From: an uncultured Gemmatimonadales bacterium
Lineage (GTDB): Bacteria > Gemmatimonadota > Gemmatimonadetes > Gemmatimonadales > GWC2-71-9
Direction of reading: 5' to 3'
Assembly (NCBI GenBank): GCA_963798915.1
Contig: CAWCVB010000002.1
Span: 416,001-480,000 of the forward strand
DNA: 64,000 nt
Shown here piece after piece: positions 905-61,308 of the stretch. The notes under the pieces are model-generated. The model did no database searches and had not been told where the DNA came from. It saw only the letters and a program-made list of their open reading frames with translations. A program made the position numbers and the translations under genes. The first letter of the stretch is position 1. Every line of letters begins with the position of its first letter.

Positions 905-946
905 GGAGGTTGGACGTTGGACGCTGGAAGTCGGAAGTTGGAGGCG
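905..946. repeat. Degenerate heptamer array (GGACGTT-type, 6 units)
   Basis: ggaggtt ggacgtt ggacgct ggaagtc ggaagtt ggaggcg. Confidence 0.75.
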
Positions 947-1005
947 ATGCATGCACCACGCAAGCCGAGTCTCAAGCGTGCTTGTAATGACAGCGCGCGA
1001 GAGCG

Positions 1006-1101
1006 TCTAGCCGTCTAGCCGTCTAGCCGTCTAGCCATCTCGCCATCTCGCCGTCTCGCCGTCTCGCCGCCGAGCCGCCGAGTCGCCCAGTCGCCCAGCC
1101 G
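1006..1101. repeat. Octamer tandem array (TCTAGCCG/TCTCGCCG, ~12 units)
   Basis: Visible directly; overlaps the 3' end and stop of the minus-strand gene ending at 1031. Confidence 0.9.
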
Positions 1102-1453
1102 CATGCGCGGCAAATGTGACGGCGGCCAGGAGTTCGAGCGTGCGTCCGGAGGCGACCTGCCCCGACGCGGCCAGCACCACACCCAGATTCAGCGCCGCAT
1201 AGGCGATCGCGGGTGGAACAGGCGACCCGCGTGCAGGTGCGTGGGCGTGCCTTGGCAGGATCCAGTACGCCACGCCCAGTGTCAGGTTGCCGAACCAGCC
1301 CAGCGGCATCAGTTCCTGGTGCCAGGTCCGGATCCAGGCGGGCAGGTGTGCCGGGAAGCCCGTCTTGGCGCTGAGCAGCACGGCGCCACCGGCCGATCCG
1401 ATCACCAGCGCGAGCAGCGCGGTCCTCACGAAGAGGATCGTCAGCGCCGGCAC
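1031..1453 (-). CDS. Small membrane protein, heme-copper oxidase subunit I/NnrS-like fragment family
   Basis: HQELMPLGWFGNLTLGVAYWILPR motif, ~4 TM; paralog of the neighbouring gene. Confidence 0.6.
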   Translation of the reverse strand: MPALTILFVRTALLALVIGSAGGAVLLSAKTGFPAHLPAWIRTWHQELMPLGWFGNLTLGVAYWILPRHAHAPARGSPVPPAIAYAALNLGVVLAASGQVASGRTLELLAAVTFAAHAAGRLGDSAARRRDGETARWRDG

Positions 1454-1454
1454 G

Positions 1455-1845
1455 TCAGCGGGCGCGCACGCGCGGCCAGAGCGACCATGCCATGATGGCC
1501 ATGGCGCAGGAACTGCATGAGCGCGGCCAGCGGCAGCCATGGTCCGGATATCAAGGTGGGCTCGGCAATGAGCCGGAGCAGCAATCCCGCATTGAGCAGG
1601 AAGAACACCGCCCAGCCGCGCCAGTCGGTGGGAGCCACGCCCCGCGCCACCCGCGGGAACATCCAGTAGGCGACGCCCGCCACCAGCTGTGAGAGCCACC
1701 CGAGCACGAGCAGGTGCAGATAGGTAGGCCACGCCCCCGCCACCCATGCGTTGTCGCGCCAGAGTGCGCGTACCACGCCCAGCAGCAGCGCGGCGACCAG
1801 GCAGGTGAGTGCGCCGCGTATCAGGTACCGGACCAGGCGGGGCAC
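1455..1845 (-). CDS. Small membrane protein of the same family (probable frameshift near 1506)
   Basis: HLLVLGWLSQLVAGVAYWMFPR motif; alternative frame gives a plausible end AMAIMAWSLWPRVRAR*. Confidence 0.6.
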
Positions 1846-1854
1846 CCTGCCTGG

Positions 1855-2353
1855 TCAGTCTGCGCCGGGTGGAACCTGTGATCGCGCCGGCATGGTATCG
1901 AGCGCCGCTGGCCGCACCTCGGGATGCCGAATGTATCCGCCCTGGAGGGCGGCGTTGCTCAAGACCAGTGAGCGCCACCACCATCGCCACCAGCGCCAGC
2001 CAGGTGAGCCAGCCGGGACCCGGTCGTCCGCCTCGACGCAGCACCAGGGCCAGCAGTGCCACCGCGCCGGCAGCCAAAGTCACGAAGAACGCGGTATCGG
2101 CGGCTTCCTCGTGCTCATGAATCAGGCGGCGGTTGGCCCAGGTAGCATCCTCGATCTGCTCCTCCGCTTCGTGGCCGGTCTGGCGCGCCGCGAATGCGCC
2201 GGCACCCGTCAGGATCGAGATGGCCAGGCCCACCGTCACGATGTCACGACGCTTCCAGATGAGTCCCCACGCGAGCAGCAACATCGAGAAGATGGCGCCG
2301 AAGATCGGCAGGTGATTGATCATCAGGTGCAGGTGGGCCATGCTCCAGTTCAT
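1855..2353 (-). CDS. DUF2231-like His-containing membrane protein (frameshift near 1963)
   Basis: HLMINHLP, TGHEAEE, IHEHEEAA; shifted frame continues AALQGGYIRHPEVR to TGA at 1855. Confidence 0.65.
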
Positions 2354-2365
2354 TTCCGTCTCCCG

Positions 2366-2800
2366 TCAGGGCTTGGTGGTGGCCGCGCGGCCGGTGATCT
2401 CGCGAATGTGAATGCGGAACAGGACGTCCCGAAAAGGCGCCGGATCCTGGGGCGTGAGCACGTCGGGCGCTACCGCCCGGAGCGCCTCGAGCGTCTGCTC
2501 GCGGCCCGGCCCGGCTTGATCTTCTTCATACCAGCTGCCCTGCACCACTACACTGGTCCAGTCGAAGATGCCCTCAGTCTCGTCCACCTCGAAGGCCACG
2601 TACGGCGAATGGCGGAGCACCTCCACCTTGCTGCCTTCCTGCGTGCGGCAGGCCAGCCACGCACCATGGTACACGTAGCCCAGCGGCACGATGTTCACGA
2701 GCTCACGGATCTGGTATGCGATCCGGCCGACGTGATTGCGGGCCAGCACTTCCCGGCACTCGGCTTCGGTCAGCTCGCGGAAACGGGCTTGGGTGCTCAT
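2366..2800 (-). CDS. Pyridoxamine 5'-phosphate oxidase-like flavin-binding protein
   Basis: ECREVL..NHVGRIA, GSKV..LR..P.VAFEVD, WTSVVVQG. Confidence 0.85.
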   Translation of the reverse strand: MSTQARFRELTEAECREVLARNHVGRIAYQIRELVNIVPLGYVYHGAWLACRTQEGSKVEVLRHSPYVAFEVDETEGIFDWTSVVVQGSWYEEDQAGPGREQTLEALRAVAPDVLTPQDPAPFRDVLFRIHIREITGRAATTKP

Positions 2801-4539: not shown

Positions 4540-4541
4540 GG

Positions 4542-13878: not shown

Positions 13879-13981
13879 GCTGAAGGCTCAAAGTTCGAGG
13901 CCAAAGGCGCAAGGCCCAAGGCGTTATCCTCGCTTCAGCCTTCAGCCTTCAGCCTTCAGCCTTCAGCCTTCAGCCTTCAGC
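13879..13981. repeat. Palindromic heptamer element (GCTGAAG-like x6 / core / CTTCAGC x7)
   Basis: Begins right after the nosY stop; core GCCCAAGGCGTTATCCTCG recurs at 14674-14692. Confidence 0.9.
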
Positions 13982-13982
13982 C

Positions 13983-14017
13983 TTGCCCTATGCTATCAGT
14001 GATGCTATCATGATGTC
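13983..14017 (+). promoter_or_regulatory. Sigma70-type promoter/operator of vapBC, probably leaderless
   Basis: TTGCCC-17bp-TATCAT with extended TG, ATG 6 nt later; ATGCTATCA direct repeats. Confidence 0.65.
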
Positions 14018-14242
14018 ATGACACGCACCACTATCACAATCCCCGAAGAGTTGCTGGATCGGCTCAGGGTCGCCGCTGCTCAACAGCGGCGATCCATCGC
14101 GGCGCTGGTGCGCGAGGCGGTGGAGGAGATGGTCGCGCGGGTTCGGCCGCGTCCGCGCAGTCTCGGCATCGGGTCGTCAGACCACACCGACACCGCCCGG
14201 CGCACCGCCGTTGAGCGGCCGGAGCCCCGATCGTGGCGCTGA
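14018..14242 (+). CDS. vapB: CopG/ribbon-helix-helix antitoxin
   Basis: RTTITIPEELL...SIAALVREAV; overlaps the PIN gene. Confidence 0.88.
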   Translation: MTRTTITIPEELLDRLRVAAAQQRRSIAALVREAVEEMVARVRPRPRSLGIGSSDHTDTARRTAVERPEPRSWR

Positions 14243-14652
14243 TTCTCGACACCGGCCCACTGTACGCATCGCTTGACCGAAGCGACGCCGACCACGAAGC
14301 CTGCCGTCGACTCATCGAAGATGCGGGCGAGCCCCTCGTCATCCCTGCGCCTGTGCTGGTCGAAGTGGATTACTGGATTCACCTGCGCCTCAATCCCGGG
14401 GTCCTGGTGGCGCTCCTCGATGACATCGTGACTGGCGCGTACATGGTGGAAGCGCTACTACCGGAAGACTACCGTCGCGTCCAGCAGCTCTCGGACCGCT
14501 ACGCCGACAGTGATATCGGGTTCGTCGACGCCGCGGTGCTGGCCATCGTGGAGCGACTGGGTGAGCCGAAACTCGCGACTCTGGACCGGAGACACTTCGG
14601 GCTCCTGCGACCACGCCACGTGGATGCGCTCACGCTCGTCCCCTCTGCATAG
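14233..14652 (+). CDS. vapC: PIN-domain toxin
   Basis: ILDTG, VLVEV, GFVDAA, ATLDRRHF. Confidence 0.92.
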   Translation: MALILDTGPLYASLDRSDADHEACRRLIEDAGEPLVIPAPVLVEVDYWIHLRLNPGVLVALLDDIVTGAYMVEALLPEDYRRVQQLSDRYADSDIGFVDAAVLAIVERLGEPKLATLDRRHFGLLRPRHVDALTLVPSA

Positions 14653-14659
14653 GTGCTGG

Positions 14660-14709
14660 GCTGAAGGCTGAAGGCCCAAAGCGTTATCCTCGTTCAGCCT
14701 TCAGCCTTC
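14660..14709. repeat. Second copy of the palindromic heptamer element
   Basis: gctgaag gctgaag gcccaaa gcgttatcctcg ttcagc cttcagc. Confidence 0.9.
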
Positions 14710-15270
14710 GACACGATGCACGGACTCACACAGCACCAGCTGGCCCACCGCGGGCGAGGCGCCCCGGAGCCGCACCACGTACTGATAGCCCAGGTCGAAG
14801 GGCGCCGTGGCATCCACCGGCGTGATGCTGATGACTTGCGAGTCGGCCACCAGCAGGGCGCCACTGGCGGGCTGGGCGATGAGTGCCAGCATGGGCGCGC
14901 TGGTGAGCCCGCCACCGGTCGCCGTGATCTGGGCCGAGCCCAGCGCGCCCACCGCCGTGGCGTGGCCGTCCGGCGTGACGCTCACCATGCCGGTGTTGGA
15001 GGACGTCCAGGTGACGGCCGGGGCTTGGACCTCCTGCCCATCGGCAGCAAAGGCCTGGACCGTGAGTGGCCGCACATCGCCGGCCGTGGTGAACAGCACC
15101 GCGCCGGGCACGATCTCCAGCCGGCTGGCCACGCCCGGAGCGGGGCCCGGCCCAAGGCCCGGCCCGGTGCTGTCCCCGCCGCCGCAACCGAGCGCCAGCA
15201 GCAGCGCGAACCCCTCGACCATCCGTACCCAACGCCCGCTGGCGGCGCGGCGACGCTTCAGCACGTCCAT
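14701..15270 (-). pseudogene. Truncated N-terminal copy of the Ig-like lipoprotein at 16605-19105
   Basis: 14731-15200 closely matches 18585-19040; similarity ends at GQLVL, stop lies in the repeat. Confidence 0.8.
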
Positions 15271-15437
15271 GCTGTCACTCCTGGATTGGGATCGTGATCG
15301 CCGGCCGGATTCATCGCATCCAGTCATCCATCAGCCGCGTCAGCTCGCCGGCGCGGCGAAGCTCCCCGTCAGGGGCTGGTGCTCCTGGCCGCCGCAGTCA
15401 TGGCGCCCATCAGCCGCCACCGATAGCTTTGGGCGTC

Positions 15438-15635
15438 ATGACCTCAACGGCCCATCAGCTCCAGGATCAGCTTCTCTCAGGCCTCAGTGCCGAGCGGAAG
15501 CTGCTGCTCAGTGAGGGCCTGCGGCACGCGGCCTGGGAGCTCAAGGCGGCCTGGATCCGGAACCAGCACCCCGAGCTCACGCCGCGCGAGGTGACGGAGC
15601 GGGTCCGCCAGTTGTTTCTCCATGCCGGCACCTGA
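15438..15635 (+). CDS. Small antitoxin-like protein (MenA1-like)
   Basis: 65 aa, IRNQHPELTPREV; overlaps the nucleotidyltransferase gene. Confidence 0.6.
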   Translation: MTSTAHQLQDQLLSGLSAERKLLLSEGLRHAAWELKAAWIRNQHPELTPREVTERVRQLFLHAGT

Positions 15636-16185
15636 GGTCTACTCCCACTTCCTGCAACCCCTCAACCTCACCGGCTTCCGCTACATGGTGACCGGCGGGC
15701 TCGCGGCCATCATGTACGGCGAGCCTCGGCTGACCAACGATGTGGACCTCGTGCTGGCCTTGCGGCCGGGAGAAGCGCGTCGGCTTGCGCGTGCGTTCCC
15801 GGCGGCGGCGTACTACGTGCCGCCGGTCGAGGTGATCGAGGAAGAGGCCTCGCGGTCCGCAGCAGGGCATTTCAATCTCCTGCATCTCGAAACGACGCTC
15901 AGGGCCGACGTGTATCTGGTCGGTGACGACCCGCTGGGCGCCTGGGGCATGGCGCACCGCCGTCAGATTCCCATCGCCGGCGAGAGCGTCTGGGTGGCAC
16001 CGGCCGAGTATGTGATCGCCAAGAAGCTGGTGTACTATCGCGACGGCGGCTCCGACCGCCACCTCCGCGACATCAATGCGATGCTGCGCTTGAGCGGCGA
16101 CGTGATCGACCGCGCGTTGCTGGCGGACTGGATCGGGCGGCTCGGGCTCGAGCGCGAGTGGGGGCGACTCGAGCCCGGCACCTGA
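15622..16185 (+). CDS. Nucleotidyltransferase, MenT1/AbiEii-like putative toxin
   Basis: YMVTGGLA..YGEPRLTNDVDL motif; KL..RHLRDI. Confidence 0.75.
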   Translation: MPAPEVYSHFLQPLNLTGFRYMVTGGLAAIMYGEPRLTNDVDLVLALRPGEARRLARAFPAAAYYVPPVEVIEEEASRSAAGHFNLLHLETTLRADVYLVGDDPLGAWGMAHRRQIPIAGESVWVAPAEYVIAKKLVYYRDGGSDRHLRDINAMLRLSGDVIDRALLADWIGRLGLEREWGRLEPGT

Positions 16186-16214
16186 CGCCGTCAGCCGCCA
16201 ATTCGCCAAGGTTC

Positions 16215-16565
16215 GTGGTTCAGCTGACAAGTCGCCGTGCCCGCGGCCTCGGCGCCGCCCTGGCGCTCTGGATCCTCGTGGCCGTGGCCTACGACGCGCT
16301 TATCCTGCTCGTGGCCGCCGGCGCCGGCGACCGGCCGGTGGAAGTGCCGCTCCTGGCCCTCTGCCTGCTCAACCCGGTCGATGCAGCGCGAGTCGGCCTG
16401 GTGCTGGCGGTCGATGCGCCCGCGCTCATGGGCTACACTGGCGCCATCATGCGGCGCGCCCTGGGACAGGCCGGCGGGATCGCCCTCACGCGCTCCGCCC
16501 TGGTGCTCTGGGCCACGATTCCCCTGCTCGCCGCCCGGAGGCGGTTCGGGCGCAAGGACTTCTGA
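16215..16565 (+). pseudogene. Diverged 3' fragment of nosY
   Basis: RARGLG..ALA...NPVDAARVGLVL..DAPALMGYTGA...RRF.RKDF matches the nosY C-half; no credible start. Confidence 0.85.
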
Positions 16566-16604
16566 CGCACGTCCTCGAGGAGCGATGGAGCAGGGGCGTG
16601 CACC

Positions 16605-19105
16605 TCATTGGCGACTCAAAGTCAGCGTGAGCTGGTAGCTCGCGGTTCCGCCGCCATCTCCGTTCACCCCAATTTTCGTCGAGAAGACGTAGAAGCTTGC
16701 CGCCAGCGTTCCAGTTCGATCAACCTGCACCGTGTCCGACGTTCCGGCGCCATTCAGGCATGGACGTATTAACACGGTATCGATTGTCGTGGCACCCACC
16801 AGAACTGCCTGGGCACCTGATCCACCCGCGGCCGGGCAGGTTCCCGCAAGTGAACCGGTCAGGGTATACCGCATCGGTGCAGTCAGTTGGAACCCCACCG
16901 CAAGGCCGAACTCCGCAACCGAGCTCCTGCCGGTGATTGTTCCGTCAGCAGAAAGCGAGATGGCAGAGGACGAGACTGTTCCTGAGCCTGAACTGTTTGC
17001 GGTTCCGATCACGTTGGCACAGGTCGCGGCATCGCTGAGACTGGTGCCGTCGCGTTCGATAAGGCAATTGTTGGGAGAATCGGGAAAGTCGAAGACGCTG
17101 ACACCGACAAGGCTCTGGATTCCGAAAAATGCCACAGAGCCCGGGCTCGAGTCAGTGACCTGAAGCATCGCCTGGGCGTCCGGTGCGATCTCGAATGATA
17201 CCGGCATCGGGATCCCGAAGAGTCTCGCCTTCACGAAGGCATAGAAGACCTGCTGGCCGGTATCGGCGGCGAGGAAATCGGTCTGGCAGGTGAAGACCTT
17301 TTGTCCCGATGTGGCAGCGAGATCGGTGCAGCCCGGCCGGCTCAGCTCCAAGGTGAACCCGCCATTGCCATCCGGCACTTTCCGCCGGATCTCCACACCA
17401 TCCACCGCGTCCAGTCCGAGGTAGGTCACGGGATCGAGGGTCACGGTAAACGTGGCCTGGTCGCCCAGCTGGGTACTGTCGCCCGCGCGGACAGAGGGCG
17501 GTGTGACAGTGAACGTGCCCTTGGGTGAGGTGGCGAGCGGGCTGAAGCTGGGTTCGAAGCTGGCGCTCAGCAGGGTGATCTTGAGCAGCTTGGCCAGCAG
17601 CTCGACCGAGCTGCCGGTGCCGGCCTTGAGGAAGGGTGTGAGCTGGAATCCCGAGGCATAGGTGGGGTCGGCGACCTGGGCCGTCTGGCTGGCGAGGTCC
17701 ACCGACTGGGTGAGGCCGCCCTGGAACTTGAATGCGTCGAATTCCAGCGCGCTCACCTGCAGCGCCTTGAGGAAGGGGTTCACCAACGCCAGCTTGGCAA
17801 AGCCGGCACCTGAGACCGCCAGTTGCGCCCGAAAGGCGGAGTCGAACGGGGTGGGCAGGGCGGGCTTGAAGCTGCCATCGGCGTTGCTGGTCAGATTCAA
17901 TACCGGGTTGCAACCTGCGGTGCAGTCCACCCCCACTGAGGCATCGGCGTGCGCCTGCACAAAGAGGTCAAAGCCGAACCCACCCAGGTTGAGCTCGCCG
18001 CCAGCCTTGAAGCTGACGCCGAGCGGTACTGCGGGTGAAAGTACGGCACCCACCGGCCCGCCGAACGGCAGAATCAGGACGCCAAGCGCCTTGCTGCACT
18101 CGACCGAGCCGTTGAAGGCACCTGTCAGTCGCGGATCGGCCGTGAGACTTCCATCCAGACCGCCTGTCAGCACCAGGCGCTGGAGGCCGCCCAGGCTGGC
18201 GTCATACTGAAAGTCGAGACTCAGGTTCGGGGTGACATCGAAGCTGAAGTTCTGCAACGTGAAGAGCGAGGCAGTGATCTCCACGCCCTCCTCGACCTTG
18301 CACTCGAAGGGGCCCAGCTCGAACTCCTGCTCCGCGCTTCGCGTGCTGACATAGCTGGCTCGGCCGCGGAGCCTGATCCCGCCGTCTGGCGTCACATCGG
18401 GATGGAACGCGCGGCTTGCCTGGGCACTCAGCACCTTGGGCACGTTGGCCAGCGATATGCTTTCATTGATCACGAGCTGCTGGAAGAGGTCGGGCAGGGC
18501 CACGACTTCGAGCGTGGCATCCACGGCGCTGCCCGCGGCGGCCACACTCACCACCCGTCCGCCGACCGTGGCGCCGCCGGAGGCCAGCACCAGCTGGCCC
18601 ACCGCGGGCGAGGCGCCCCGGAGCGCACTACGTACTGATAGCCGAGATCGAACGGGGCGGTGGCATCCACCGGCGTGATGCTGATGACTTGCGAATCGGC
18701 CACCAGCAGGGCGCCACTGGCGGGCTGGGCGATGAGTACCAGCATGGGCGCACTGGTGAGCCCGCCACCGGTCGCCGTGATCTGGGCCGAGCCGAGCGCG
18801 CCCACCGCCGTGGCGTGGCCGTCAGCGGTGACGCTCACCATGCCGGTGTTGGACGACTGCCAGGTGACGCTGGGTGCCAGGACCTCGTGGCCGTCCGCAT
18901 CCAGCGCACGCACCGTGAGCACCCGGCTCTCCCCCGCCTGGGTAAACAGTACCGCGCCCGGCACGACCTCCAGCCGGCTGGCCGTGCCCGGCCCGGGACC
19001 GGGCCCAGGGCCCGGGCCGGTGCTGTCCCCGCCGCCACAGCCCGTCAGGGCAAGGAACAGCAGGGACGGCACCAGCCCCGACAGGGCAAGCGGTCTCGAT
19101 GTCAT
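16605..19105 (-). CDS. Large secreted lipoprotein with Ig-like (Big_2) domain; 1-nt frameshift near 18624
   Basis: Lipobox LTGC, VTWQSSNTGMVSV..DG; duplicate at 14760 has the extra C that restores the frame. Confidence 0.75.
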
Positions 19106-19305
19106 CGGCTCCACTCCTCGATCAATTGGGCCAGCTCTGTGCTGCCCTTGAAAGTTCGTTTTTCTCCGGTGCCCAGTCGTTCGACCACGCCGGCACAATC
19201 CGCCGCCGGATCGGTCGCCACCCGGCGGATTCGGAGCATGAAGTAGCTCAACCGGTCAGGAACAACCGGCGCAGCATCGGCCTGCGTGGTTTGCGCGTTT
19301 GCCAT
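19102..19305 (-). CDS. Small hypothetical protein (67 aa)
   Basis: FMLRIR...GVVERLGTGEKRTF...EL pattern; stop overlaps the start of the next gene. Confidence 0.7.
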   Translation of the reverse strand: MANAQTTQADAAPVVPDRLSYFMLRIRRVATDPAADCAGVVERLGTGEKRTFKGSTELAQLIEEWSR

Positions 19306-19381
19306 ACGCGCTGCATGTTAGGGCACCGCTGCCAAGGCGCCGTCAAACGGGTGCCAACCTCTTGCCTCGTGGACGTTTGGC

Positions 19382-22300
19382 ATGTACTCCCTGGAGACGC
19401 TGGGATGCGTCCGGCTGACCATCAACGGCGTGCCGCTTCTGGCGGGACGCCGCAAGCTTCTCTGCGTGCTTGCCTTTCTCGCCCGCTCCCGCCACCCGGT
19501 AAGCCGCTCCCGGCTCGCCGACCTCTTCTGGCCCGGGGACAACGAGTCTCGCTCCCGCCGCTCGGTACGCCAGGCGCTGGCGGAACTGCGGCGCGCATTG
19601 GGCGGGGCAGCAGCGTTGGTGGAAGACGACGGCGGCGTGATGCTGGCGCCAGGCACCCTGGAGGTGGACGCATCGCTGCTGGAAGCCGCCATGCAACGCG
19701 GCGACTGGAGGCAGGCATTCGAGCGCTGGGGTGGAGATTTTCTGCCCGGACTGGAGGATGTCGGCGGGGAGGATGTTCGCATCTGGCTGGAGACGGAGCG
19801 CCAGGCGCTGAGCCTGCAGTTTGCCCAGGCCGCGGAGGCGCTGGCATCCGACGCGGAACTGAGGAGCGAGTGGGAGAGCGCCCTCGCCGTCACCTCTCGC
19901 TGGACCGAGGCGCTTCCCCTGGACGAGCGAGCGGTCTTCCGCCAACTCCAGCTCCTCCATCGCGCCGGCCGCGGGAATGAATCGGCTCGCCAGCGCGCGG
20001 CTTATATCGAACGGGTGCGGCGTGAGCTGGATGCCGAGCCCTCCGCACAGTTCCTTCGTGATACCGGTGTCCTCGCCACTCCGCCCACGGGCATTCCATT
20101 GCCGGGGGCCTCTACTGCGCTGCTGTACCCGACCTCATCGGCGGGCACCCCGAACTCACCCGGCTCAATGCGCTGTGGGACCGGGCTCGGCGAGGCCAAG
20201 CCGCGGTCGGCATGGTTGAGGGTGAGGAGGGGAGTGGCAAGAGCCGGCTGGTGGACGAGTTTCTCCGGTCGCTCGGCGAACAGGACCCACAGACGCTTTT
20301 CCTTCGCGCGCGCGCCTTCGAGGCGGAGCGCGATCGGCCCTGGGTCCTCGCCCGACATCTGCTGGCGCCATTGGCCGCCGCACCGGGTCTGGCCGCCGCG
20401 CCGGCGTCGGCACTGCGGGCGCTGGCCGCGCTGGTGCCGGACGTGATCGCCCGCTTTCCCTCTCTTCCGGCGACCGAACCGGATGACATCGCCGAGGCCG
20501 TGACGCGGGTACTGGCTGAAGTGGCCGCCGAGGTGCCAGTGGTCATGGCGGTGGACGACATGGACCTGGCTGATGCCAACAGCTCCGAGCTGATCGAAAC
20601 ACTCTGCCGGAGACCGGTGCCGGGCATGCTCCTGCTGGCGACATTCCGGACCGGTACCTTGCCTTCGCTGGTGGACCTCGCGCGACGATCGCCCGATGCG
20701 GCAGCATTGAGTCACCTGAGGCTTGGACCACTCACGGCGGCGCAGGTCGGCCAGCTACTGGCGAGCATGGGCGAGTTCGATCCGGCCGGCCGGGAGGCGC
20801 TTGCCCGACAGCTGCACGCCGAGAGCGGGGGAAACCCGCTCGCGGTGGTGGAATTCGTCACCGGCCTGGCGCAGGACGGCGGGATCGCACCGGGGCCGGT
20901 GGGACGGTGGACGGTGCGGGCATCGCATGACTCGGCGTTGCCATTACCGTCGTCGCTGCAGGATGCGATTGGCGCTCGGCTCCGCCGGATGCCGCCAGAT
21001 GCAATCCGAGTCCTTCGTGCCGCTGCGGTGCTGGGCCGGGAATCGGAGCTCGACCTGCTCCTGAGCGTCTCCAGTCTCGATGCCAGACGGCTTGAGGACG
21101 CGATCGGCGAGTTGGTGGAACACCGGCTGCTTCGGCTGGTATCAAACACGCCCGCCCGCCTCGAATTTGGCCATGAGCTGACTCGCCGCCTGGTATACGA
21201 GGGCACGCCGCCGCTTGAGCGGCAGGCGTTGCATCGCCGGGCCTATCGGGCCCTTCGTCACGCGGAGGCCGATGCCGCGCGCGAGTCAGCGCTGGCGTAC
21301 CATCGTGTTCGCGCCGGTCGCTGGCGCGCCGTATCCAGGCAAGGCCTGGTGGCCGCGGCCAGCCTGACCGTGGTGATCGGAATCGTCGCGGCATCGTTGG
21401 TGGCACACCCAAGGCGACATCCGGACGCGCGACGGATTGCCGTGATGCCTTTCGTTGCCGCTGGTGACAGCGCCGCCGGCGAGCTGGCCGCGCTGATGCC
21501 GCAGCTAGTCGACGTGGCCTTGATGGGTGCGCCAGGGATCGAGGTCGAGGAACTCACGGGGGATTCCGCTCCACTATCGGCCAGCGACGAGGCGCGGCGA
21601 CTCGGTCGGCACCTGCGCCTCCAGGGAACGGTGGGCGTGAAAGGATCCCGGGTGGAGATCCGGGCGTCGCTCCGTGACGCGCAGCATCCGGACCAGATCA
21701 TCTCAACCGCCGAGGGTGAAGGCGCGCTGGCCGACCTCCCGGCCGTGGCTGGAGATCTCATCCGGGCATTGTTGCCGGATCTGCCGACGTTGCGACTGTC
21801 GCGCTTTCGTCTGAGCGCCGCCCACACCACATCGCTACCGGCGCTGCATTCGTATCTGCTCGGCGAATTGGATGCGCGCCGACTTGAAATGGAAGCGGCC
21901 GCGCATGCGTTCTGGCAGGCCGCTCAGGCCGATCCGGACTTTGCCGCGGCCTGGCACGAGCTCGCACGCGTGAACGACTGGTACGCGCTGGGGAATCGCG
22001 CGCAGATACTGGAAGATTCCGCCGTGCGGCACATGGACGGGCTCACCCCACGCAGCCGGCTGAATCTCGAGGGGTGGCAGCTCTTTGCGTCCGGGCAGCC
22101 GGACGATGCGGAGCGGCGGTTTGAATCGGTGCTGGATTTTGCGCCGGGGACGCCGGAAGCGAGCATCGGGATGGCGGAGACGCTGTTGCATTTCAACTGG
22201 GCACGTGGCCGGGATGTGGACGAGTCCCAACCGTACTGGGAGGCCGCGCGCGACGCCGACCCGGATGACTGGCGGCCCCACGTGCACCTCTGGCAACAGG

Positions 22301-23351
22301 CGGCGCGGCAAGGGCGAGTGTCCGATGCCGCGGTCGAGCTTCGGCGACTCATTGCGCTGGAGGGCGAAGGAGAAGCGGCCCGCTCTTTCAGGATCGTCCT
22401 GGCCGGGCTGGAGGCAGACTCGGTGGCGGTCATGCGGCAGCTTGATGCAGCCACCGACATCAGTGCGTGGGAGCTGACGGACCTCACGGAGGAGCTCGGC
22501 GCAACTGTCGGGAGACCTGATCTCGCAGAGGCGACTGCCACACGCCTCGCCTTCCCCACGCGAAATCCCGAGCTTCGCGCTTTTGGTCATGAACTGCTGG
22601 CGCATCTTGCCCTGGCGAAAGGACAATGGCGCCGGGCCCTGGCCCAGCTGGATAGTGCGGAACAGCTGGAGCCGGTCTCGGCGGGAACCGAGCGCGCACT
22701 CTTCTGGTCCACTCCATTCCTCCCGCCCGGACTGAATCCGGATTCGGGTCGGCGCGCGGCGCGCCTGCGGCTGGCCGGCGCGCCGCTCCATCGGGTGCGG
22801 CGAACGTTCGATTTCTGGTTTGATTTCGACCGCACTCGCGAGCCGCTGCTGCGCAAGTATCTCGACCACTTGCTTGCTGCCCAGCTTGGAGAGGCGACCT
22901 CGCCGGGACTGCCCATCAGCGGCCTCGCGGAGTGGAGCGACTCGCTGGCGCGCGTGCAACCGTTTCTTGAACGAAGCGCCGCGGCATGGTCGGCAGCCGG
23001 AGCAGGGGACTCTGCGGATGCGATCACTCTGCTTCTGGGCTCATGGAACGGGACGCGGGCAGTCGAACCGAACCTGTCGGTGTTTTTCGCGCGTCCCTGG
23101 GATCGGTGGCTCATGGCCCAGGCGCTTGCGCAGAGCGGACGGCAGCAGGAAGCGCTTCGGTGGTACGGGGGGCTCGGCGTGGTGTCGCTCGCCGACTATG
23201 CCTACACGGCGCCAGCCGCGCTCGAACGGGCGCGCCTTCTGGAGCGGCTGGGGCGCCCCGAGGAGGCCCGGTGGGAGTATCGGCGATTTGTCAGCCTGTG
23301 GGCGGCGGCGGACCCGGAATTCCAGCCGGAGGTGGAGATGGCAAGAGAGAG

Positions 23352-23370
<19 letters not shown>
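19382..23370 (+). CDS. SARP/BTAD transcriptional regulator with AAA ATPase, TM helix and TPR region; frameshift near 20128
   Basis: wHTH-BTAD N-terminus; LIG..PEL, GEEGSGKS, AVDD, SGGNPL; TM after RWR; RRIAVMPF; TPRs. Confidence 0.82.
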
Positions 23371-25302
<1,932 letters not shown>

Positions 25303-25376
25303 CCCACTGTGACCCACCGCACCACCTCGACACTCCCCGAGTGTGATTGTAGGACCACACACTCTGGGAGGGTCCC

Positions 25377-33685: not shown

Positions 33686-33760
33686 GACGGGGAAGACGGG
33701 AAGATCTATTCCGCCAGACCTTCCCGTCTTCCCGTCTTCCCGTCTTCCCGCCTTCCCGCC
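33676..33760. repeat. Palindromic octamer element between convergent genes
   Basis: AAGACGGG-type arm, then TTCCCGTC x3 and TTCCCGCC x2. Confidence 0.88.
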
Positions 33761-46568: not shown

Positions 46569-46610
46569 GTTTACGGTCGTCGGTCGTCGGTCGTCGGTCG
46601 TCGGTCATCA
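46569..46610. repeat. GTCGTCG x4 heptamer array
   Basis: Starts after the cupredoxin stop; inverted counterpart at 49900. Confidence 0.92.
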
Positions 46611-46880: not shown

Positions 46881-46995
46881 CTGCGACTCATGACCCATCA
46901 CCCCGCAGCCCGCGACCAGCGACCCGCGACCCGCGACCCGCGACTCATGACTCATGACCCATCACCCGCGACCCATGATCCATGACCCCTGACCT
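46879..46995. repeat. GACCCGC/GACYCAT heptamer array (~16 units)
   Basis: Fills the whole intergenic gap and contains the next ATG. Confidence 0.9.
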
Positions 46996-47920: not shown

Positions 47921-48308
47921 GGGGAGAGCCGGCGATGTCCTGTGCATCGCCGGTGAGCAGTCAACTCGTACCTGGAATGATGCTGACGGATGGCTCGCGT
48001 TGTAAATTGCGACTCGTACAGCCAGACACGTTCCATCCCATATACACGCGGATGGTCATGGCACCCCCTCGCCGGATGCTGCATCCTTTTCAGATGCTGG
48101 TACGTGCCCTCCCGGTTGGCTGTTCAAACGGGGATGATGCTGGGACGGATCCGGGCGGAGTTGCATCCATCCGGCTGATATCCGGACACATGCAGGTGGA
48201 TACAGCAGGTGCGATCTCCGGCCTGGAAAGCCGTATGCGAGTGTCCGGTGGGCTCACACTTCCACAGGTGTTTACGAAGCACAACTTGTATCTGGCATGG
48301 CACGAGCC

Positions 48309-48980
48309 ATGACATTGCCTGAGCAGGCCTCGGGCGCTGGCTCCTCAACCGCAACCGCCGCGTCAATGCTGCCGCGGTCGTCGGCGAAGCTCCGGCGGCT
48401 GCGGCTGGCAGCGACGATTGGGATCGTGCTCCTGTGCCTCGGCTGCACTGCGAGCTGGAATGCGCTGGTTCGGTATTCCGAGCTTCCCGCAGTCGAGGGC
48501 ATGACACCCGAAATGGGTGTCTACGCGGAGGTGCTGCGCTACTTTCGGGCCAGCTGGGGTCTGCCCGAAGTGCTGCTCTCAAACCGTCCCCCCCAATCCG
48601 ACATCTCCACGGTATTCCGCTCCGGTCACGGCGTGGTGCCGGGCCACTGGGCCGATACGCTGCAGCTGGAAGTCCTGACGGCCCTGGCTGACTCCAGCCT
48701 GGCGCAATTGGCCCCGCATCCAGCCATCGAGCAGGCGGCAGCACTGGCAAGGATTCCAGTGAGAGAGGGCACTCCGGCTGACGCCATCCGACCTGATCAG
48801 CCGAACGAGCCTCGGATCTGGTTTTCTCGTGCTGGATTCAATCGCGACAGCACCGTCGCGGCCATCAACGTGCAATTCTGGTGCGGGTACCTGTGCGGTC
48901 ATGGTGTCACGCTGCTGCTTGCTCGCCGGCCAGGCAACCAGTGGAAAGTCTGGCATGGATTCCTGCACTGGATTTCCTGA
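48309..48980 (+). CDS. Hypothetical membrane-anchored protein
   Basis: One TM; C-terminal FSRAGFN...CGYLCGHG. Confidence 0.6.
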   Translation: MTLPEQASGAGSSTATAASMLPRSSAKLRRLRLAATIGIVLLCLGCTASWNALVRYSELPAVEGMTPEMGVYAEVLRYFRASWGLPEVLLSNRPPQSDISTVFRSGHGVVPGHWADTLQLEVLTALADSSLAQLAPHPAIEQAAALARIPVREGTPADAIRPDQPNEPRIWFSRAGFNRDSTVAAINVQFWCGYLCGHGVTLLLARRPGNQWKVWHGFLHWIS

Positions 48981-49100
48981 TGGCCGCGATACCTGAGATC
49001 GAAAGCTGATCGGGCACCGGATTGCTTCGGCCACTGCGCTGCCTCGCACTGACGTGTGAAGCAACCATTTGCGACCCGCGAGCCGCATCTATATTCCTCC

Positions 49101-49814
49101 ATGCCATCCCCACTCCGCCTCGCCTTGGTCGGCGACTACGATCCTGCCGTCACCGCCCACCGCGCCATTCCGGTAGCGCTGCGTCTCGCCGGTGAAGCAC
49201 TCGACACTCCGCTCCTTTACGAGTGGGTTGACACCACCACACTCGGCTCGGACGCAGAAGGTTCCCTCGCCGGTTACCAAGCCATATGGCTCGTTCCCAA
49301 CAGTCCCTACGCCAACACGGTCGGTGCGCTGTCGGCCATCCGTTTCGCCCGCGAATCCGGACGTCCGTTTCTCGGCACATGTGCCGGCTTTCAGCACGCC
49401 ATCATGGAGTACGCGGGCGCCGTCTGGCAGCTCGGACGGTCCCAGGCGGCTCACGCCGAACTCGATCCCGATGCGGTGCACCCGGTCATTGCGCCTCTTG
49501 CCTGCTCACTAGTGGAAGAGCAGGGCAGAGTGCGCTTCGCGCCCGGCTCACAGCTGGCCCGGCTGTATCATGCCGGTGAAGCCATTGAGGCCTATCACTG
49601 CAACTACGGTCTCAATCCATGGCACGCCCAGCGTCTGGATACCGGCGCGCTACGCGCCACGGCCTGGGACGACGCCGGCGACATCCGCGGTGTCGAACTG
49701 GCTGATCATCCATTCTTCGTTGCCACGCTGTTTCAGCCTGAACGGGCGGCGCTGGAGGGTCGAGTACCTGCGGTGGTCCGTGGATTGGTGGAGGCGGCAC
49801 GCTGTGAGCTATGA
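49101..49814 (+). CDS. Stand-alone CTP-synthase-like glutamine amidotransferase domain
   Basis: LGTCAGFQH, YHCNYG, HPFFVATLFQPE. Confidence 0.85.
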   Translation: MPSPLRLALVGDYDPAVTAHRAIPVALRLAGEALDTPLLYEWVDTTTLGSDAEGSLAGYQAIWLVPNSPYANTVGALSAIRFARESGRPFLGTCAGFQHAIMEYAGAVWQLGRSQAAHAELDPDAVHPVIAPLACSLVEEQGRVRFAPGSQLARLYHAGEAIEAYHCNYGLNPWHAQRLDTGALRATAWDDAGDIRGVELADHPFFVATLFQPERAALEGRVPAVVRGLVEAARCEL

Positions 49815-49884
49815 GCTGTGCGCGGTGAGCTGTGCGCGGTGAGCTGCGCGCGGTGAGCTGCGCGCTGTGCGCTGTGCGCTGAGA
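49801..49884. repeat. GCTGTGC/GCGGTGA heptamer array (12 units)
   Basis: Overlaps the upstream stop (CEL*). Confidence 0.88.
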
Positions 49885-49899
49885 GTATGGTAACTTTCG

Positions 49900-49974
49900 C
49901 GACCGACGACCGACGACCGACGACCGACGACCGACGACCGACGACCGACGACCGACGACCGACGACCGACGACC
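49900..49974. repeat. CGACCGA x10 heptamer array
   Basis: Perfect; reverse complement of the 46576 array. Confidence 0.95.
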
Positions 49975-50063
49975 ACCCATCTTGCCCACCTTGCCTGTTC
50001 CGCCTACCATCCACTTGACCGTGCCGTTTGTGAGATTCGACTCGAACGACGTGCAATACATAC

Positions 50064-53326: not shown

Positions 53327-53408
53327 GCCGACCCCGACTCTGGCGCTCCGAAGCCGGAACCGTACCTTCGAGGAACACCCATCACTCCTCCTCGCTCCGG
53401 AGCAGACC

Positions 53409-53705: not shown

Positions 53706-53764
53706 GGCTACCGGGGTGGCGGAATAGACAGACCGGAGCAACCTGACCGTGGAAGGCGCATTCG

Positions 53765-54190
53765 ATGACTCTGCCAGGACTGGCGCCATTTTGCCGGGCT
53801 CGGCACCTGTTGCTCGGCGTTGTGCTGGCCCTCCCGCTGTCGGGGTGTGGCGTCTCGGAGACGTGCACGCTCATCGGCTGCCGCTCCGGCCTGATCGTGC
53901 GTGTGAGCGCCCTCCCCGGAGACAGTGCCGCGATCACGCTCATTGAGGTGGGTGCCAATTCGATCACCCTGACCTGCAACTCGCCCGATCAGTGTCAGGA
54001 GGTCGGAGTGCTATTTGCCGACAGGACCCCGGTCACCGCTACCGTCCTCGTAAGCTCCGGAGACGTCTCAAGGTCGTTCGACGTCGTACCTCAGTATGCA
54101 TTGCAGCGGCCCAACGGCCCTGGCTGCGAGCCGGAGTGCCGAACCGCAGTGGTAAATCTGGACATGACGCACGCGAGTTCGTGGCAGTAG
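53765..54190 (+). CDS. Hypothetical Cys-rich lipoprotein
   Basis: Lipobox LSGC, CTLIGC, PNGPGCEPEC. Confidence 0.7.
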   Translation: MTLPGLAPFCRARHLLLGVVLALPLSGCGVSETCTLIGCRSGLIVRVSALPGDSAAITLIEVGANSITLTCNSPDQCQEVGVLFADRTPVTATVLVSSGDVSRSFDVVPQYALQRPNGPGCEPECRTAVVNLDMTHASSWQ

Positions 54191-58524: not shown

Positions 58525-58725
58525 TGCGGAAAACCTCTGCTGTAGGGGGCACATGTGCCCCGGTCAGGCTCCTGGCCCGGGTGGCCAGGCAACAAAAAGA
58601 CCGATCGGAACGACTATCCGAACGGCCGTCTTGCATGCTGCGATCAGGTGTGACGGAGCTCCTGCAGTTTCATATTCTAAGCTGCCGCCCGATCTGGAAC
58701 TTGTCAATATCGCGTGGGGCTGGGG

Positions 58726-59262: not shown

Positions 59263-59279
59263 GAATGAAGTGTACTGCA

Positions 59280-59385
59280 AGACGGCTGGACGGCTAGGCA
59301 GGAGGGGCAGGACGGGCAGGACGGGCAAGGTGGGTGCTCGGCCGCTCGACCGTCGACCCGTCGCCCGTCTTCCCGCCTGTCCGAC
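59280..59385. repeat. Degenerate 8/9-mer palindromic array between divergent genes
   Basis: gacggctg gacggcta ... cgggcagga units, mirrored by cccgtc/tcccgcc units. Confidence 0.6.
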
Positions 59386-59397
59386 TATCTTCCTCCC

Positions 59398-60012: not shown

Positions 60013-60587
60013 AGCTGCTGTTCTCAGCAGGTGCTGCCGTGATGCTTGTCTTCTCTGCTGCCACGACCGCCGTCGCCCAGGCGACGGTCATCCGTCCCGA
60101 CCGGCGGCTTACTCCGGCCGAAACCGAATTGCGCTCGGCCTTGTACCAGCTTCGCGACTCACTGGCGACCCTGTCCGGCGCGGCCGCGCGGATGGATCGC
60201 GATTTTGCCCGCACATCTCCACCCGCCCTGGTCTCACGGGCGCGCCAGGTCCAGCTCGGCTGCGAGGCCGCAGCGCGCAACATTCCTGACCCTGAGGCCA
60301 AGGTGCGGTCCCACCCCATGCGGACCGAACTGGAAGCGAAGCAGCAGGCCCAATTGCTCAAGGCCTACACCGAACTTGACCAGGCCCTCACGGCCTGCAG
60401 CAAGACCTTTGGTGCGATGGCGAAGCCCGGCGCCGGCGAAGAAGTCCGCGGCTACGGCAATGCCAGAATCCGGTCGCTCAACGTGGAACTCAAGCGCTAC
60501 GGCCGAGCCGCGGACGACTTCTTCAGCGCCCTGCGGATTCCCAACCGGCCGCTGGGCGCCGGGCCCAACCCTTTCAACAACGGCTGA
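60009..60587 (+). CDS. Hypothetical secreted helical protein
   Basis: Signal peptide AVA-Q; overlaps the upstream stop. Confidence 0.75.
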   Translation: MKLLFSAGAAVMLVFSAATTAVAQATVIRPDRRLTPAETELRSALYQLRDSLATLSGAAARMDRDFARTSPPALVSRARQVQLGCEAAARNIPDPEAKVRSHPMRTELEAKQQAQLLKAYTELDQALTACSKTFGAMAKPGAGEEVRGYGNARIRSLNVELKRYGRAADDFFSALRIPNRPLGAGPNPFNNG

Positions 60588-60607
60588 AATCAGGTCCCCG
60601 GCAGCCA

Positions 60608-60640
60608 GGGAGGGCGGCGTTTGCCGCCCTCCCGTCTTTT
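60608..60640 (+). terminator. Intrinsic terminator
   Basis: GGGAGGGCGGC-gttt-GCCGCCCTCCC-gtctttt. Confidence 0.88.
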
Positions 60641-60739
60641 GTGGACATGTGTTCATGTGGATACACATGTCCACAGCATGTGGAAAGACCGGCGCAGCCC
60701 ATGCCGGGACAGTGACTTGCGGGCCCGGCTTCTTCCACA
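60640..60739. promoter_or_regulatory. Cluster of five DnaA-box-like nonamers
   Basis: TGTGGACAT, TGTGGATAC, ATGTCCACA, TGTGGAAAG, TCTTCCACA (1-2 mismatches to TTATCCACA). Confidence 0.55.
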
Positions 60740-60769
60740 TTCAAAGTGAGCTAAACCGAATAAAATCAG

Positions 60770-60802
60770 GCACTTGCGCGATTCTGACGCAAGTGCAATT
60801 AT
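60770..60802 (+). promoter_or_regulatory. Putative promoter with overlapping inverted repeat
   Basis: TTGCGC-17bp-AATTAT; GCACTTGCG-N9-CGCAAGTGC. Confidence 0.5.
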
Positions 60803-60806
60803 GAGT

Positions 60807-61221
60807 GCACGCGATTCGTCACGTGTGCGGACTCCGGGTTCGTGCGGCGAGCGATGAGCGGTTCGGCTGGATGTGCGGTGGAGGCAGGCGAACTTCCCAA
60901 GGGTATCGTCTGTCGTTGAGACCGAATCACATTCAGTCGGGCTGGCGAGGCCAGTCGCGTGCCTCGTCCACCCCGATCTGGCGCCTCGGGGTGCAGTGTG
61001 AACGGCCGATCCGCGACTCGGTCGGACTCGCAGCGCCAGCAGTGATGAACCAGGTGGGATGGCCATCCGGCCTGGGAATCAACGTTGAAGCCCCATCCGT
61101 GTCCTCCCGATCGGGAAACCGGCGGCGGCACCAGGGAGAAGAACGGCGGCGCAAGCTCCGCCTTCAGCCTGTCACTGCGAGAAGCGGCCATCCAGCCACG
61201 ACTGGGTGGCCGTTTCGTTTT
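60807..61221 (+). ncRNA. Unidentified large structured RNA (one RNA or two in tandem)
   Basis: No credible ORF; many helices with G-U pairs, GAAA/GCAA tetraloops, pseudoknot, 3' terminator. Confidence 0.75.
61181..61221 (+). terminator. Terminator closing the putative ncRNA
   Basis: GAAGCGGCCATCCAG / CTGGGTGGCCGTTTC then GTTTT. Confidence 0.8.
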
Positions 61222-61233
61222 GGGGAGATGGGA

Positions 61234-61308
61234 GCTGAAAGCTGAGAGCTGAAGGCTGAAAGCTGAGAAAGGCTGAGAGCTGAGAGCATTTAGCCCTCAG
61301 CTCTCGGC
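61234..61308. repeat. GCTGARA heptamer palindromic element
   Basis: Seven GCTGA units, then tttagc cctcagc tctcggc; contains the stop of the yhaM-like gene. Confidence 0.85.

Follow-up and report, generated by a model that had tools for sequence, protein, structure and literature searches.

The 64-kb window analysed here, meaning the whole stretch of DNA under study (C2:416001-480000), comes from a soil bacterium of the order Gemmatimonadales and carries short tandem-repeat arrays with units of 7 to 9 bp, most of them at the ends of genes. Arrays begin at the stop codon of nosY, stand on both sides of a vapBC-like toxin-antitoxin pair, lie within thiC and across its stop codon, and recur at further gene junctions (Table 1). 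The source genome (G000) is a 3.31-Mb assembly with 66% G+C in 17 contigs. Arrays were defined with Tandem Repeats Finder (TRF) as repeats of period 7–9 with a score of at least 40 and at least 3 copies. Fifteen arrays in the window pass this threshold, against means of 0, 0.13 and 0.07 in windows simulated with Markov orders 1, 3 and 5 (30 windows per order), a number far above chance. An earlier note on this stretch had listed arrays here and taken them for one family of elements, and every array listed was found by TRF and inspection of the sequence at, or a few bases from, the position given for it. The same note had seen no transposase or integrase in the window, which a Pfam scan of the 66 window open reading frames (ORFs) confirmed; no recombinase was found among them either.

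Table 1. Arrays and associated features of the window (a point in the strand column: no strand given; folds are predicted RNA folds).
Position	Strand	Feature	Evidence or fold	Situation in relatives
905..942	.	Heptamer array GGAAGTT/GGACGTT, 5.4 copies, single arm	TRF and sequence	
1004..1102	.	Octamer array of successive blocks CGTCTAGC, CATCTCGC, CGTCTCGC, CGCCGAGC/T, CGCCCAGT	TRF and sequence	
13879..23453	.	9.6-kb stretch between nosY and the thiC riboswitch		Of the genomes compared, G000 alone has it
13879..13984	+	Hairpin from the nosY stop codon: degenerate GCTGAAG-like arm, loop GCGTTATCCTCG, CTTCAGC x7.4	-55.8 kcal/mol, z -7.4	
14018..14652	+	vapBC-like toxin-antitoxin pair (ribbon-helix-helix and PIN proteins)	Pfam	
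14659..14709	+	Hairpin 3' of the vapC stop: GGCTGAA x2.4, loop GCGTTATCCTCG, TTCAGCC x2.4	-27.9 kcal/mol, z -3.6	
16237..16565	+	Partial duplicate of the nosY 3' end	76/109 aa identical to resident nosY	
23352..23422	+	Two direct GCTGAAR arrays flanking a small GC hairpin; the first contains the stop codon of a 1052-aa ORF	TRF and sequence	
23466..23563	+	Thiamine pyrophosphate (TPP) riboswitch 5' of thiC	Rfam RF00059, 60.3 bits, gathering score 54.3	
23824..23884	+	Two-armed heptamer hairpin, in frame within thiC	-43.2 kcal/mol, z -4.9	
25251..25310	+	GCTGAAA/GCTGAAG units overlapping the thiC stop, then degenerate CTTCAGCC units	Weak fold, z -2.0	Junction syntenic in G001
33684..33758	.	Octamer hairpin with arms AAGACGGG and CTTCCCGT, occupying the whole spacer between convergent genes	-36.9 kcal/mol, z -5.2	Nonamer hairpin at the same spacer in G001
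46574..46606	+	CGGTCGT x4.7 in a single arm, following the stop codon of a gene for a copper-binding protein	No stable fold, z -1.35	
46883..46994	+	Mixed GACCCGC/GACYCAT heptamer array after a small membrane-protein ORF		Junction holds hairpin arrays in G001 and G008
47921..49976	.	2-kb stretch with three ORFs		Absent from G001 and G008, partly present in G006
49800..49974	+	GCTGTGC/GCTGAGC array of 11.7 copies (49800-49881) and CGACCGA array of 10.7 perfect copies (49900-49974), upstream of a glycosyltransferase gene		
59281..59369	.	Imperfect hairpin of nonamers (GGCAGGACG) against 7/8-mers (TCGACCCG...) in a spacer between divergent genes	z -2.4	Nonamer hairpin at the same spacer in G001
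61233..61308	.	AGCTGAA/AGCTGAG array and a short complementary arm	-42.5 kcal/mol, z -4.3	

The genome-wide scan that the earlier note had proposed gave a sharp peak at periods 7, 8 and 9, with 321, 127 and 119 TRF rows; the next highest, period 14, had 48. With overlaps merged, the genome holds 551 arrays (312 of period 7, 121 of period 8 and 118 of period 9). They make up 0.76% of the genome (25,164 bases) and form 426 loci. Predicted ORFs leave 286 of the arrays entirely outside and 91 partly outside. The genomes of relatives are designated G001, G002, G004 to G008 and so on; nine further genomes of the same genus were compared with G000, and the same-genus relatives are fragmented metagenome-assembled genomes (MAGs) with about 75% nucleotide identity to it. 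There are 777 arrays per Mb in G008, 620 in G005, about 380 in G001, 349 in G006, 167 in G000 and 67 in G007, and 0 to 100 in eight genomes from other genera or families of the order, these being figures from small samples of 10–60 kb, in part syntenic with the window; for G001 the sample was 430 kb, and for G000 the entire genome was used.

The arrays are mostly found at gene ends, as the earlier note had it. Spacers between convergent genes hold 0.82 arrays per kb, tandem spacers 0.59 and divergent spacers 0.43, and 101 of 428 adjacent gene 3' ends are within 5 nt of an array or overlap it. The hairpin within the thiC frame is an exception to this placement. Genes adjoining arrays occur in both orientations. 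Within 60 nt after a stop codon there are 213 arrays; their mRNA-sense strand is rich in G in 137, rich in C in 59 and neutral in 17. Neighbouring loci, with less than 2 kb between them, tend to have the same unit, allowing one mismatch (47 of 177 pairs, against 14% of random pairs). C-rich arrays were considered as possible suppliers of promoter boxes (TTGCCC ... TACCAT/TATCTT): TATCT follows 15 of 539 arrays where about 6 are expected, and the other 5-mers enriched after arrays look like degenerate array tails.

A complementary arm is present within 120 bp of 134–140 of the 551 arrays, compared with 3–5 in a control in which the array is reversed without being complemented. The two-armed layout that the earlier note had called frequent is therefore a property of about a quarter of the arrays. 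A search extended to 400 nt found 103 left arms with a partner; their loops are up to 20 nt long in 37 cases, 20–40 nt in 15 and longer in 51, of which 13 cluster at 120–140 nt. There are 112 distinct canonical units. These had been described as unrelated families, yet most arrays fall into a few networks of units connected by single substitutions: 242 and 66 of the 312 heptamer arrays, 107 of 120 octamer arrays and 104 of 118 nonamer arrays. The largest networks of octamers (23 units) and nonamers (12 units) are far beyond those of random units similar in composition (means of 3.5 and 1.9), whereas the largest heptamer network, with 41 units, is within the null (mean 24.6, maximum 42). On average a period-7 array has 6.6 copies, a period-8 array 5.5 and a period-9 array 4.9. 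The motif CGTC, or GACG on the other strand, is within the unit of 212 of the 551 arrays, where about 62 are expected from shuffled letters, and is raised in all three periods; since the arrays are not independent of one another, this excess is a lead and not a test.

Conservation was assessed by aligning 430 kb of G001 to G000, which gave 397 kb of colinear chains with 24 indels of at least 400 bp. Of the mapped syntenic spacers that bear an array in G000, 26 out of 28 also bear one in G001, and in 4 only is the canonical unit common to both. A further 197 mapped spacers have no array in G000, and 42 of these have one in G001; the array threshold used for G001 in this comparison was laxer than that for G000, and 26 spacers were unmapped. 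The site is conserved and the sequence is not. This bears out the earlier proposal of an element family defined more by layout than by sequence, as does the concerted change of the two arms in thiC described below. One pair of convergent genes gives a clean case of an empty and a filled site: just 3 bp separate the two stop codons in G000, where G001 has about 150 bp of hairpin element. There are also orthologous spacers with units of different period, such as a nonamer in G000 and the octamer TCTAACCG in G001, which makes parallel mutation at each site unlikely.

The hairpin within thiC corresponds to ThiC residues 76–96, approximately, counting from the ATG at 23597, and falls between the ThiC-associated and radical-SAM domains. 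A hairpin is found at the same place in G008, G006, G002, G005 and G001 and in G016, which is from another genus, and is missing in G004, G014 and G015. Its unit differs among the genomes, with both arms changing in concert. In an alignment of six species there are 24 consensus pairs, 9 of which are kept through changes on both sides, and the thiC frame stays open in the 6 genomes aligned across the hairpin. A terminator within the essential gene thiC would be harmful, so co-variation at this place suggests that complementarity is kept by the mode of mutation or replacement and not by selection for termination alone. Genome-wide, 34 of the 426 loci are candidates for arrays read in frame, in frames that are open and coding-like on both sides; some are false, one example being the right border of the 9.6-kb insert, where the frame is on the wrong strand. 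Another array read in frame is that of the NAD synthetase NadE, (GAGGGTC)x9 at C2:749487-749549 (L152), which encodes residues 285–305 and is placed between the CN_hydrolase and NAD_synthase domains.

Particular units have a distribution that is restricted to species. Pattern searches were made first in one genome per genus across the family and then repeated within the genus. Three copies of TCTAACCG in tandem give 55 matches in G001 (about 27 loci), 1 in G006 and 1 in G004, with none in the 7 other genomes of the genus and none in 40 genomes of other genera. Likewise, three copies of CTCGCCGT give 23 matches in G000 (11 loci), none in 9 genomes of the same genus and none in the 40 of other genera. 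Three copies of GGCTGAA are present in 6 of 10 genomes of the genus, including G000, with 4 to 51 matches each. The unit families are thus species-specific bursts, and 85 of the 162 arrays in the G001 sample use a unit that is also present in G000. Loops are shared in some cases. In the G001 sample, 4 of 7 matches to TCTAACCG (6 loci) carry, as read by eye, a loop that resembles TTCTTACCTTCGGGT, and in a fifth the reverse complement of this loop is present; the hairpin between nosY and thiC in G008 has a loop similar to this one. The window hairpin at 33684, with AAGACGGG, has its arms and loop in common with a locus near C5:14181, on a different contig.

The arrays are mixed with elements of the repetitive extragenic palindromic (REP) or miniature inverted-repeat transposable element (MITE) kind. 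REP/REPIN elements with REP-associated tyrosine transposases (RAYTs) are reportedly the subject of work by Bertels and Rainey from 2011 (PMC3116915, PMC3337134). With the arrays masked, 144 of the 426 loci have flank or loop similarity to another locus, among them two large groups, one of 62 loci and one of 35. Family F1 is a hairpin beginning CGTC, often as an inverted doublet, and family F2 is a 60-nt element with copies on different contigs that are 100% identical, which suggests recent spread. Hairpin families with CGTC... and GTAG... at one end were recognised in the genome by eye. Copies within 100 bp of an array number 19 of 24 for F1a, 10 of 10 for F1b, 19 of 23 for F2, 5 of 8 for F3 and 4 of 8 for F4, against a baseline of 8.4% for a random intergenic base. 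One locus outside the window, C11:64150-65000 (L156), is similar to a bacterial interspersed mosaic element (BIME): a unit of about 225 bp, repeated three times, consists of a REP hairpin, F2, a (GACCGAC)n heptamer array and nonamer-like pieces. A search of two mosaic loci against Rfam gave one match, taken as chance (28.3 bits against a gathering score of 168). No BIME-like cluster was found in the window.

The position 3' of a gene of the metallo-beta-lactamase fold has arrays in G000 and G001 and a single GC-rich perfect hairpin in G008 and G006. The latter hairpins (G008 C173:1995-2045, L020; G006 C432:633-685, L017) have an end GTAGGGG..., like that of a GTAG-tagged REP.

Three matches to Y1_Tnp are present in the genome. 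One, C2:384349-384810, is an IS200/IS605 TnpA (71.4 bits, cut-off 55) about 31 kb upstream of the window, and another, C2:114029-114592, is RAYT-like (NF047646, 66.7 bits). The earlier note had suggested looking for a co-occurring RAYT gene, and a Y1 transposase of the IS200 type and a RAYT-like gene do occur elsewhere in the genome, but the latter is below its cut-off of 80 and neither is flanked by arrays. The hairpin beside the RAYT-like gene is not of high copy number, having 1 copy at up to 2 mismatches. Next to this gene, C2:114593-114980 is a tandem array of about 9 copies of a unit of about 27 nt, ending in a GC hairpin that is inverted relative to the hairpins across the gene. Four Phage_integrase matches are all located outside the window. 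A Y1 match is found in 5 of 5 genomes with more than 150 arrays per Mb and in 3 of 10 with 100 per Mb or fewer; this pattern is given no weight because the five dense genomes are all from one genus and the samples are of 10–60 kb.

The element itself is one array, or an inverted pair of arrays, with units of 7–9 bases, and it usually begins at a stop codon or beside one. From one species to another the site is retained and the unit replaced, an inverted pair remains complementary through a change of unit, and particular units have multiplied to dozens of loci in single species. The explanation preferred, with a confidence somewhat better than even, is a lineage-specific family of intergenic repeats that disperse by copying, with a layout like that of the short tandemly repeated repetitive (STRR) sequences and the Xanthomonas repeats and with a BIME-like arrangement at some loci. 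The combination of many units, species bursts, co-varying arms and mixing with REP- and MITE-like elements argues for active copying and not slippage alone. Copy number would change by replication slippage. The two arms may stay alike through templated copying inside the hairpin, arm-to-arm templating being known for quasipalindromes, or because the hairpin is replaced as a unit, and not through selection alone. Transfer of units or entire hairpins from locus to locus could occur by ectopic template switching or with the help of an enzyme. The hairpins probably come to serve as 3'-end structures of transcripts.

A number of observations weigh against this explanation or parts of it. The remaining three quarters or so of the arrays are single arms with no partner. 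The short loops of G000 are mostly unique, with 2 similar pairs among 47 against 0.35 expected from shuffles, so copying of whole hairpins is not the rule in this genome. The arrays of the window match neither the REP families F1–F4 nor, in their flanks, any other array locus. Because the search for REP families set out from array flanks, the choice of families is biased; that hairpins in general cluster with arrays was rejected, since 12 of 159 perfect intergenic hairpins are near arrays, with a baseline of 5.4%. The flanks of the IS200-type and RAYT-like genes consist of ordinary GC hairpins. No T-run follows the hairpins ending at 13984, 14709, 33758 and 61308 when the sequence is read, and these are therefore not canonical intrinsic terminators. 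Gene calls were made by a crude method based on GC3, and with relatives so fragmented and at such an identity single events are not reconstructable.

The most serious alternative, to which a minor but real chance is given, is that slippage alone is responsible. By this account the arrays have grown in place from chance duplications and are kept as useful terminators or RNA stabilisers, with no copying between loci. It agrees with the conservation of sites across species, with the enrichment after stop codons and between convergent genes, and with the unique loops of G000. Further support comes from the adjoining blocks of the array at 1004..1102, which are 1–2 bases apart in sequence and indicate change in situ, and from the one-mutation networks of the units. 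The earlier note had offered scars of slippage repair as one of its two explanations, and this part fits the changes in copy number. Slippage does not, however, explain bursts of a single unit throughout a species, such as that at about 27 loci in G001 with one match each in G006 and G004 and none in 7 others, or that at 11 loci found in G000 only. Units of different period in orthologous spacers, loops common to separate loci, and a hairpin that co-varies inside thiC, where termination would be harmful, also count against it.

A more specific form of dispersal by copying, considered unlikely, is that an enzyme acting on single-stranded DNA, of the HUH/Y1 type, makes and moves the arrays; the IS200-type or RAYT-like protein of the genome would be an example, and each unit would contain its short target, possibly CGTC. 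Such an enzyme could add, remove or transplant whole units or hairpins by cutting and rejoining at its targets, where single strands are exposed after genes. If this is true, the arrays would be a minimal mobile element that has little beyond its own repeated cleavage site. It would also account for the bursts, the common loops, the co-variation of arms even in genes, and the proximity of REP- and MITE-like elements.

The other explanation in the earlier note was that the hairpin arrays are recombination or insertion sites for small gene cassettes, defined by structure; if they were sites in the manner of attC, cassettes would enter and leave through them. Some excess at synteny breaks is present. 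An array is present in 14 of the 38 spacers at an indel edge and in 34 of the 251 that are syntenic, an odds ratio of 3.7 (p=0.0015); for spacers inside an island the count is 1 of 17. When spacers of at least 30 bp only are counted, this falls to 14 of 33 against 30 of 129 (odds ratio 2.4, p=0.047), and 24 of the 38 break spacers are without an array. Counted from the side of the arrays, 49 of the spacers classed bear one: 34 with full synteny, 14 bordering a break and 1 within an island. The excess at breaks is therefore modest and most arrays are at conserved junctions. In the window itself, 5 of the 12 array loci are at breaks, 1 is inside an insert, 5 are syntenic and 1 is at the end of a G001 contig. 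The impression that arrays are densest around accessory genes needs correction to this extent: the window has 5 loci at breaks and 1 in the island, and over the 397 kb the enrichment is modest.

The largest indel in the window is the 9.6-kb stretch that separates nosY from the thiC riboswitch in G000. In G001, G006 and G008 a hairpin array comes immediately after nosY, ahead of the TPP riboswitch and thiC, and its unit is different in each. The left edge of the insert is the GCTGAAG hairpin at 13879-13984 and the right edge is the GCTGAAR arrays at 23352-23422. Between these are the vapBC-like pair, an AbiEii-like ORF, the partial nosY, ORFs with no assigned function and an AAA_16/TPR protein. 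PADLOC gave 0 matches for 9 ORFs of the insert and NCBIfam gave weak matches only. The partial nosY has 70–72% nucleotide identity to the nosY of the relatives; it may be that a second nos cluster was once present here, or that part of one was imported. In G006, nos genes were matched on more than one contig. As the insert includes a nosY fragment it is a mosaic and not a clean cassette. It is one instance of the empty and filled sites that the earlier note had proposed to look for, filled in G000 and empty in G001, G006 and G008.

The vapBC-like pair within the insert is flanked by the two hairpins with a common loop, GCGTTATCCTCG, which occurs in the whole genome only at 13921 and 14681. This restriction led to rejection of the loop as a conserved feature of the GCTGAAG family. 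No homologue of vapC was found in 9 genomes of the same genus at E<=1e-10, and the closest relatives of vapBC are in Chloroflexota MAGs, with 81–82% amino acid identity. Neither a GCTGAAG array nor the loop was found at any of 80 vapBC-like loci in other genomes (0/80), and the hairpin is therefore a local feature of the host that does not travel with the cassette. An AT-rich repeated stretch 5' of vapB (GCTATCA...TGATGTCATG) looks conserved in the two Gemmatimonadota loci inspected. In one Gemmatimonadota MAG with 60% G+C, a long array of a unit of about 11 nt (GAGGTCAGCGT) lies 3' of the vapC homologue (L065, 1880-2150), and TTTCACT heptamers lie upstream of it; other Gemmatimonadota may have repeat styles of their own.

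At 905-1102, G001 and G008 carry about 1.3 kb extra, which in G001 encodes a multicopper oxidase, and at 46574-46606, G001 and G006 carry 3.6–4.9 kb extra, which in G001 encodes a Ser/Thr kinase and a PD40 repeat protein. The extra DNA of G001 at these two places contains ordinary genes, with no match to a transposase, integrase or recombinase. The 2-kb stretch at 47921..49976 has arrays at its right edge only, the left edge being without one, and 53298-54189, which is absent from G001, has an array at neither edge. The ORF at 49056-49814 matches NF004836, 'CTP synthase C-terminal region-related (seleno)protein' (290.7 bits, cut-off 260); G006 has this ORF, and G001 and G008 lack it at this place.

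Arrays as cassette sites are very unlikely on these data. The excess at breaks, the arrays at 5 of the 8 indel edges in the window, the GCTGAAR arrays at both bounds of the 9.6-kb insert and the vapBC-like pair between hairpins with a loop unique to them speak for such sites. Against this are the weakening of the excess in longer spacers, the break spacers without arrays, the near absence of arrays from island spacers, the 26 of 28 array spacers common to G001, the vapBC-like loci elsewhere, the mosaic nature of the insert, and the lack of a recombinase in the window and of mobile-element genes in the extra DNA of G001. Integron attC sites are imperfect palindromes defined more by structure than by sequence and follow the cassette gene. 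The arrays here are likewise palindromes of structure over sequence placed after genes. Unlike an integron, the window is without an integrase, an attI site or a row of cassettes in one orientation, most array sites are syntenic, and the hairpins do not travel with vapBC. The general claim that arrays are insertion or recombination sites for cassettes is therefore not supported. Cassette insertion is at most an occasional side effect, with recombination or duplication at arrays occurring now and then, as in the vapBC case. That arrays are seen where genes have been inserted or deleted is for the most part a consequence of location, arrays and indels both occupying the spacers between transcription units.

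Cyanobacterial STRR repeats are of the same kind as the heptamer repeats of Xanthomonas and Nostoc (GGGGAYT). In Xanthomonas, (GGGAATC) repeats occur singly or as inverted pairs within 50 bp after stop codons on the coding strand (Rehm et al. 2015, PMC4692102). Between Xcc and Xac, 83% of these are kept in the same gene context, and repeat-bearing loci are more stable than controls (PMC4692102). The arrays described here are like the Xanthomonas and Nostoc repeats in being heptamers, singles or inverted pairs, spread over the genome and mostly non-coding, in following stop codons on the coding strand and being scarce between divergent genes, and in keeping their position while length and sequence vary; as in Xanthomonas they are G-rich in the mRNA sense after stops (137 against 59) (PMC4692102). 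The features of intergenic heptamer simple sequence repeats, namely the non-coding excess, the G-rich placement near stops and the scarcity in divergent spacers, are thus all found. Unlike those repeats, a single genome here has dozens of units in three periods, most without G-runs, instead of one dominant G-run unit able to form a quadruplex. The unit families also differ between species of the genus, arms co-vary and a number of arrays are read in frame as protein. The modest excess at synteny breaks seen here contrasts with Xanthomonas, whose repeat loci are more stable than controls (PMC4692102), a stability which also speaks against the arrays as cassette sites.

The arrays are like REP, REPIN and BIME elements with RAYTs in being extragenic and hairpin-forming, with species-specific families, and in having clusters that are tandemly repeated together with flanking DNA, at one locus here (Di Nocera et al. 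2013, PMC3733652). They are unlike REP in that the arms are short tandem units of variable number instead of a fixed imperfect palindrome of 20–40 bp with an unpaired GTAG or CGTC tag at one end, and CGTC is inside the repeated unit and not an end tag. Most arrays are also without a REP nearby, many have no partner arm, and the Y1 genes are not flanked by arrays. In marine Beggiatoaceae, TAACTGA is found in 169 direct sets and 1 indirect (MacGregor 2015, PMC4679880). These are similarly abundant intergenic heptamers in direct repeat, with many sets per genome, but they have one unit that is nearly always direct, where here there are many units and frequent inverted pairs (PMC4679880). The tandem repeats of Borgs, which are archaeal extrachromosomal elements, add disordered regions to proteins (PMC9879509). 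The arrays are like them in evolving fast and in being in some cases within genes, here in ThiC and the NadE linker, but in this genome only 34 of 426 loci are in-frame candidates. Literature searches found no account of such arrays in Gemmatimonadota; the term 'Gemmatimonadetes' is absent from PMC3733652 and from the 12 papers that one of the searches listed.

Regulatory repeats of the Xanthomonas and Nostoc type, in which the G-rich strand folds into a G-quadruplex and modulates expression, are a very unlikely identity for the arrays. Post-stop arrays are G-rich in the mRNA sense, as in Xanthomonas, and some units have a GGG run every 8–9 nt, for example AAGACGGG and ACGGGCAGG. The commonest heptamers, ACCGACG, ACCGTCG and AAGGCTG, have no G-run, however, the mean copy numbers of the three periods are 6.6, 5.5 and 4.9, and the pairing arms point to duplex hairpins. 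An assembly artefact of short-read metagenome binning can hardly be credited: the contigs of relatives often end at arrays, as do C6 and C151 of G001 near the array at 61233..61308 (window position 61090), but arrays are found within long contigs with the flanking genes intact, orthologous spacers are occupied in separately assembled genomes, and the thiC frame is open across the hairpin in 6 genomes.

One further tandem repeat of the window is of a different period. At 34344-34425, a perfect 21-bp repeat of 3.9 copies (TRF score 164) lies within the minus-strand ORF 33760-34530, which has no Pfam match; in frame it would encode a peptide repeat of 7 residues.

A new cassette-capture system is not borne out. 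What is new in this genus is the arrangement of units in one-mutation networks, the complementary arm of a quarter of the arrays, the conservation of site and not of sequence, the species bursts, the co-variation inside thiC and the REP- and MITE-like neighbours. For annotation, the arrays break MAG assemblies, can supply stop codons and add peptide segments to proteins, ThiC and NadE among them. Arrays of short units placed after genes are known from cyanobacteria and Xanthomonas, and this genus is a richer case of them. If the arrays do form a lineage-specific family of intergenic repeats dispersing by copying, the loci and candidate enzymes described here are concrete enough for that copying to be tested.

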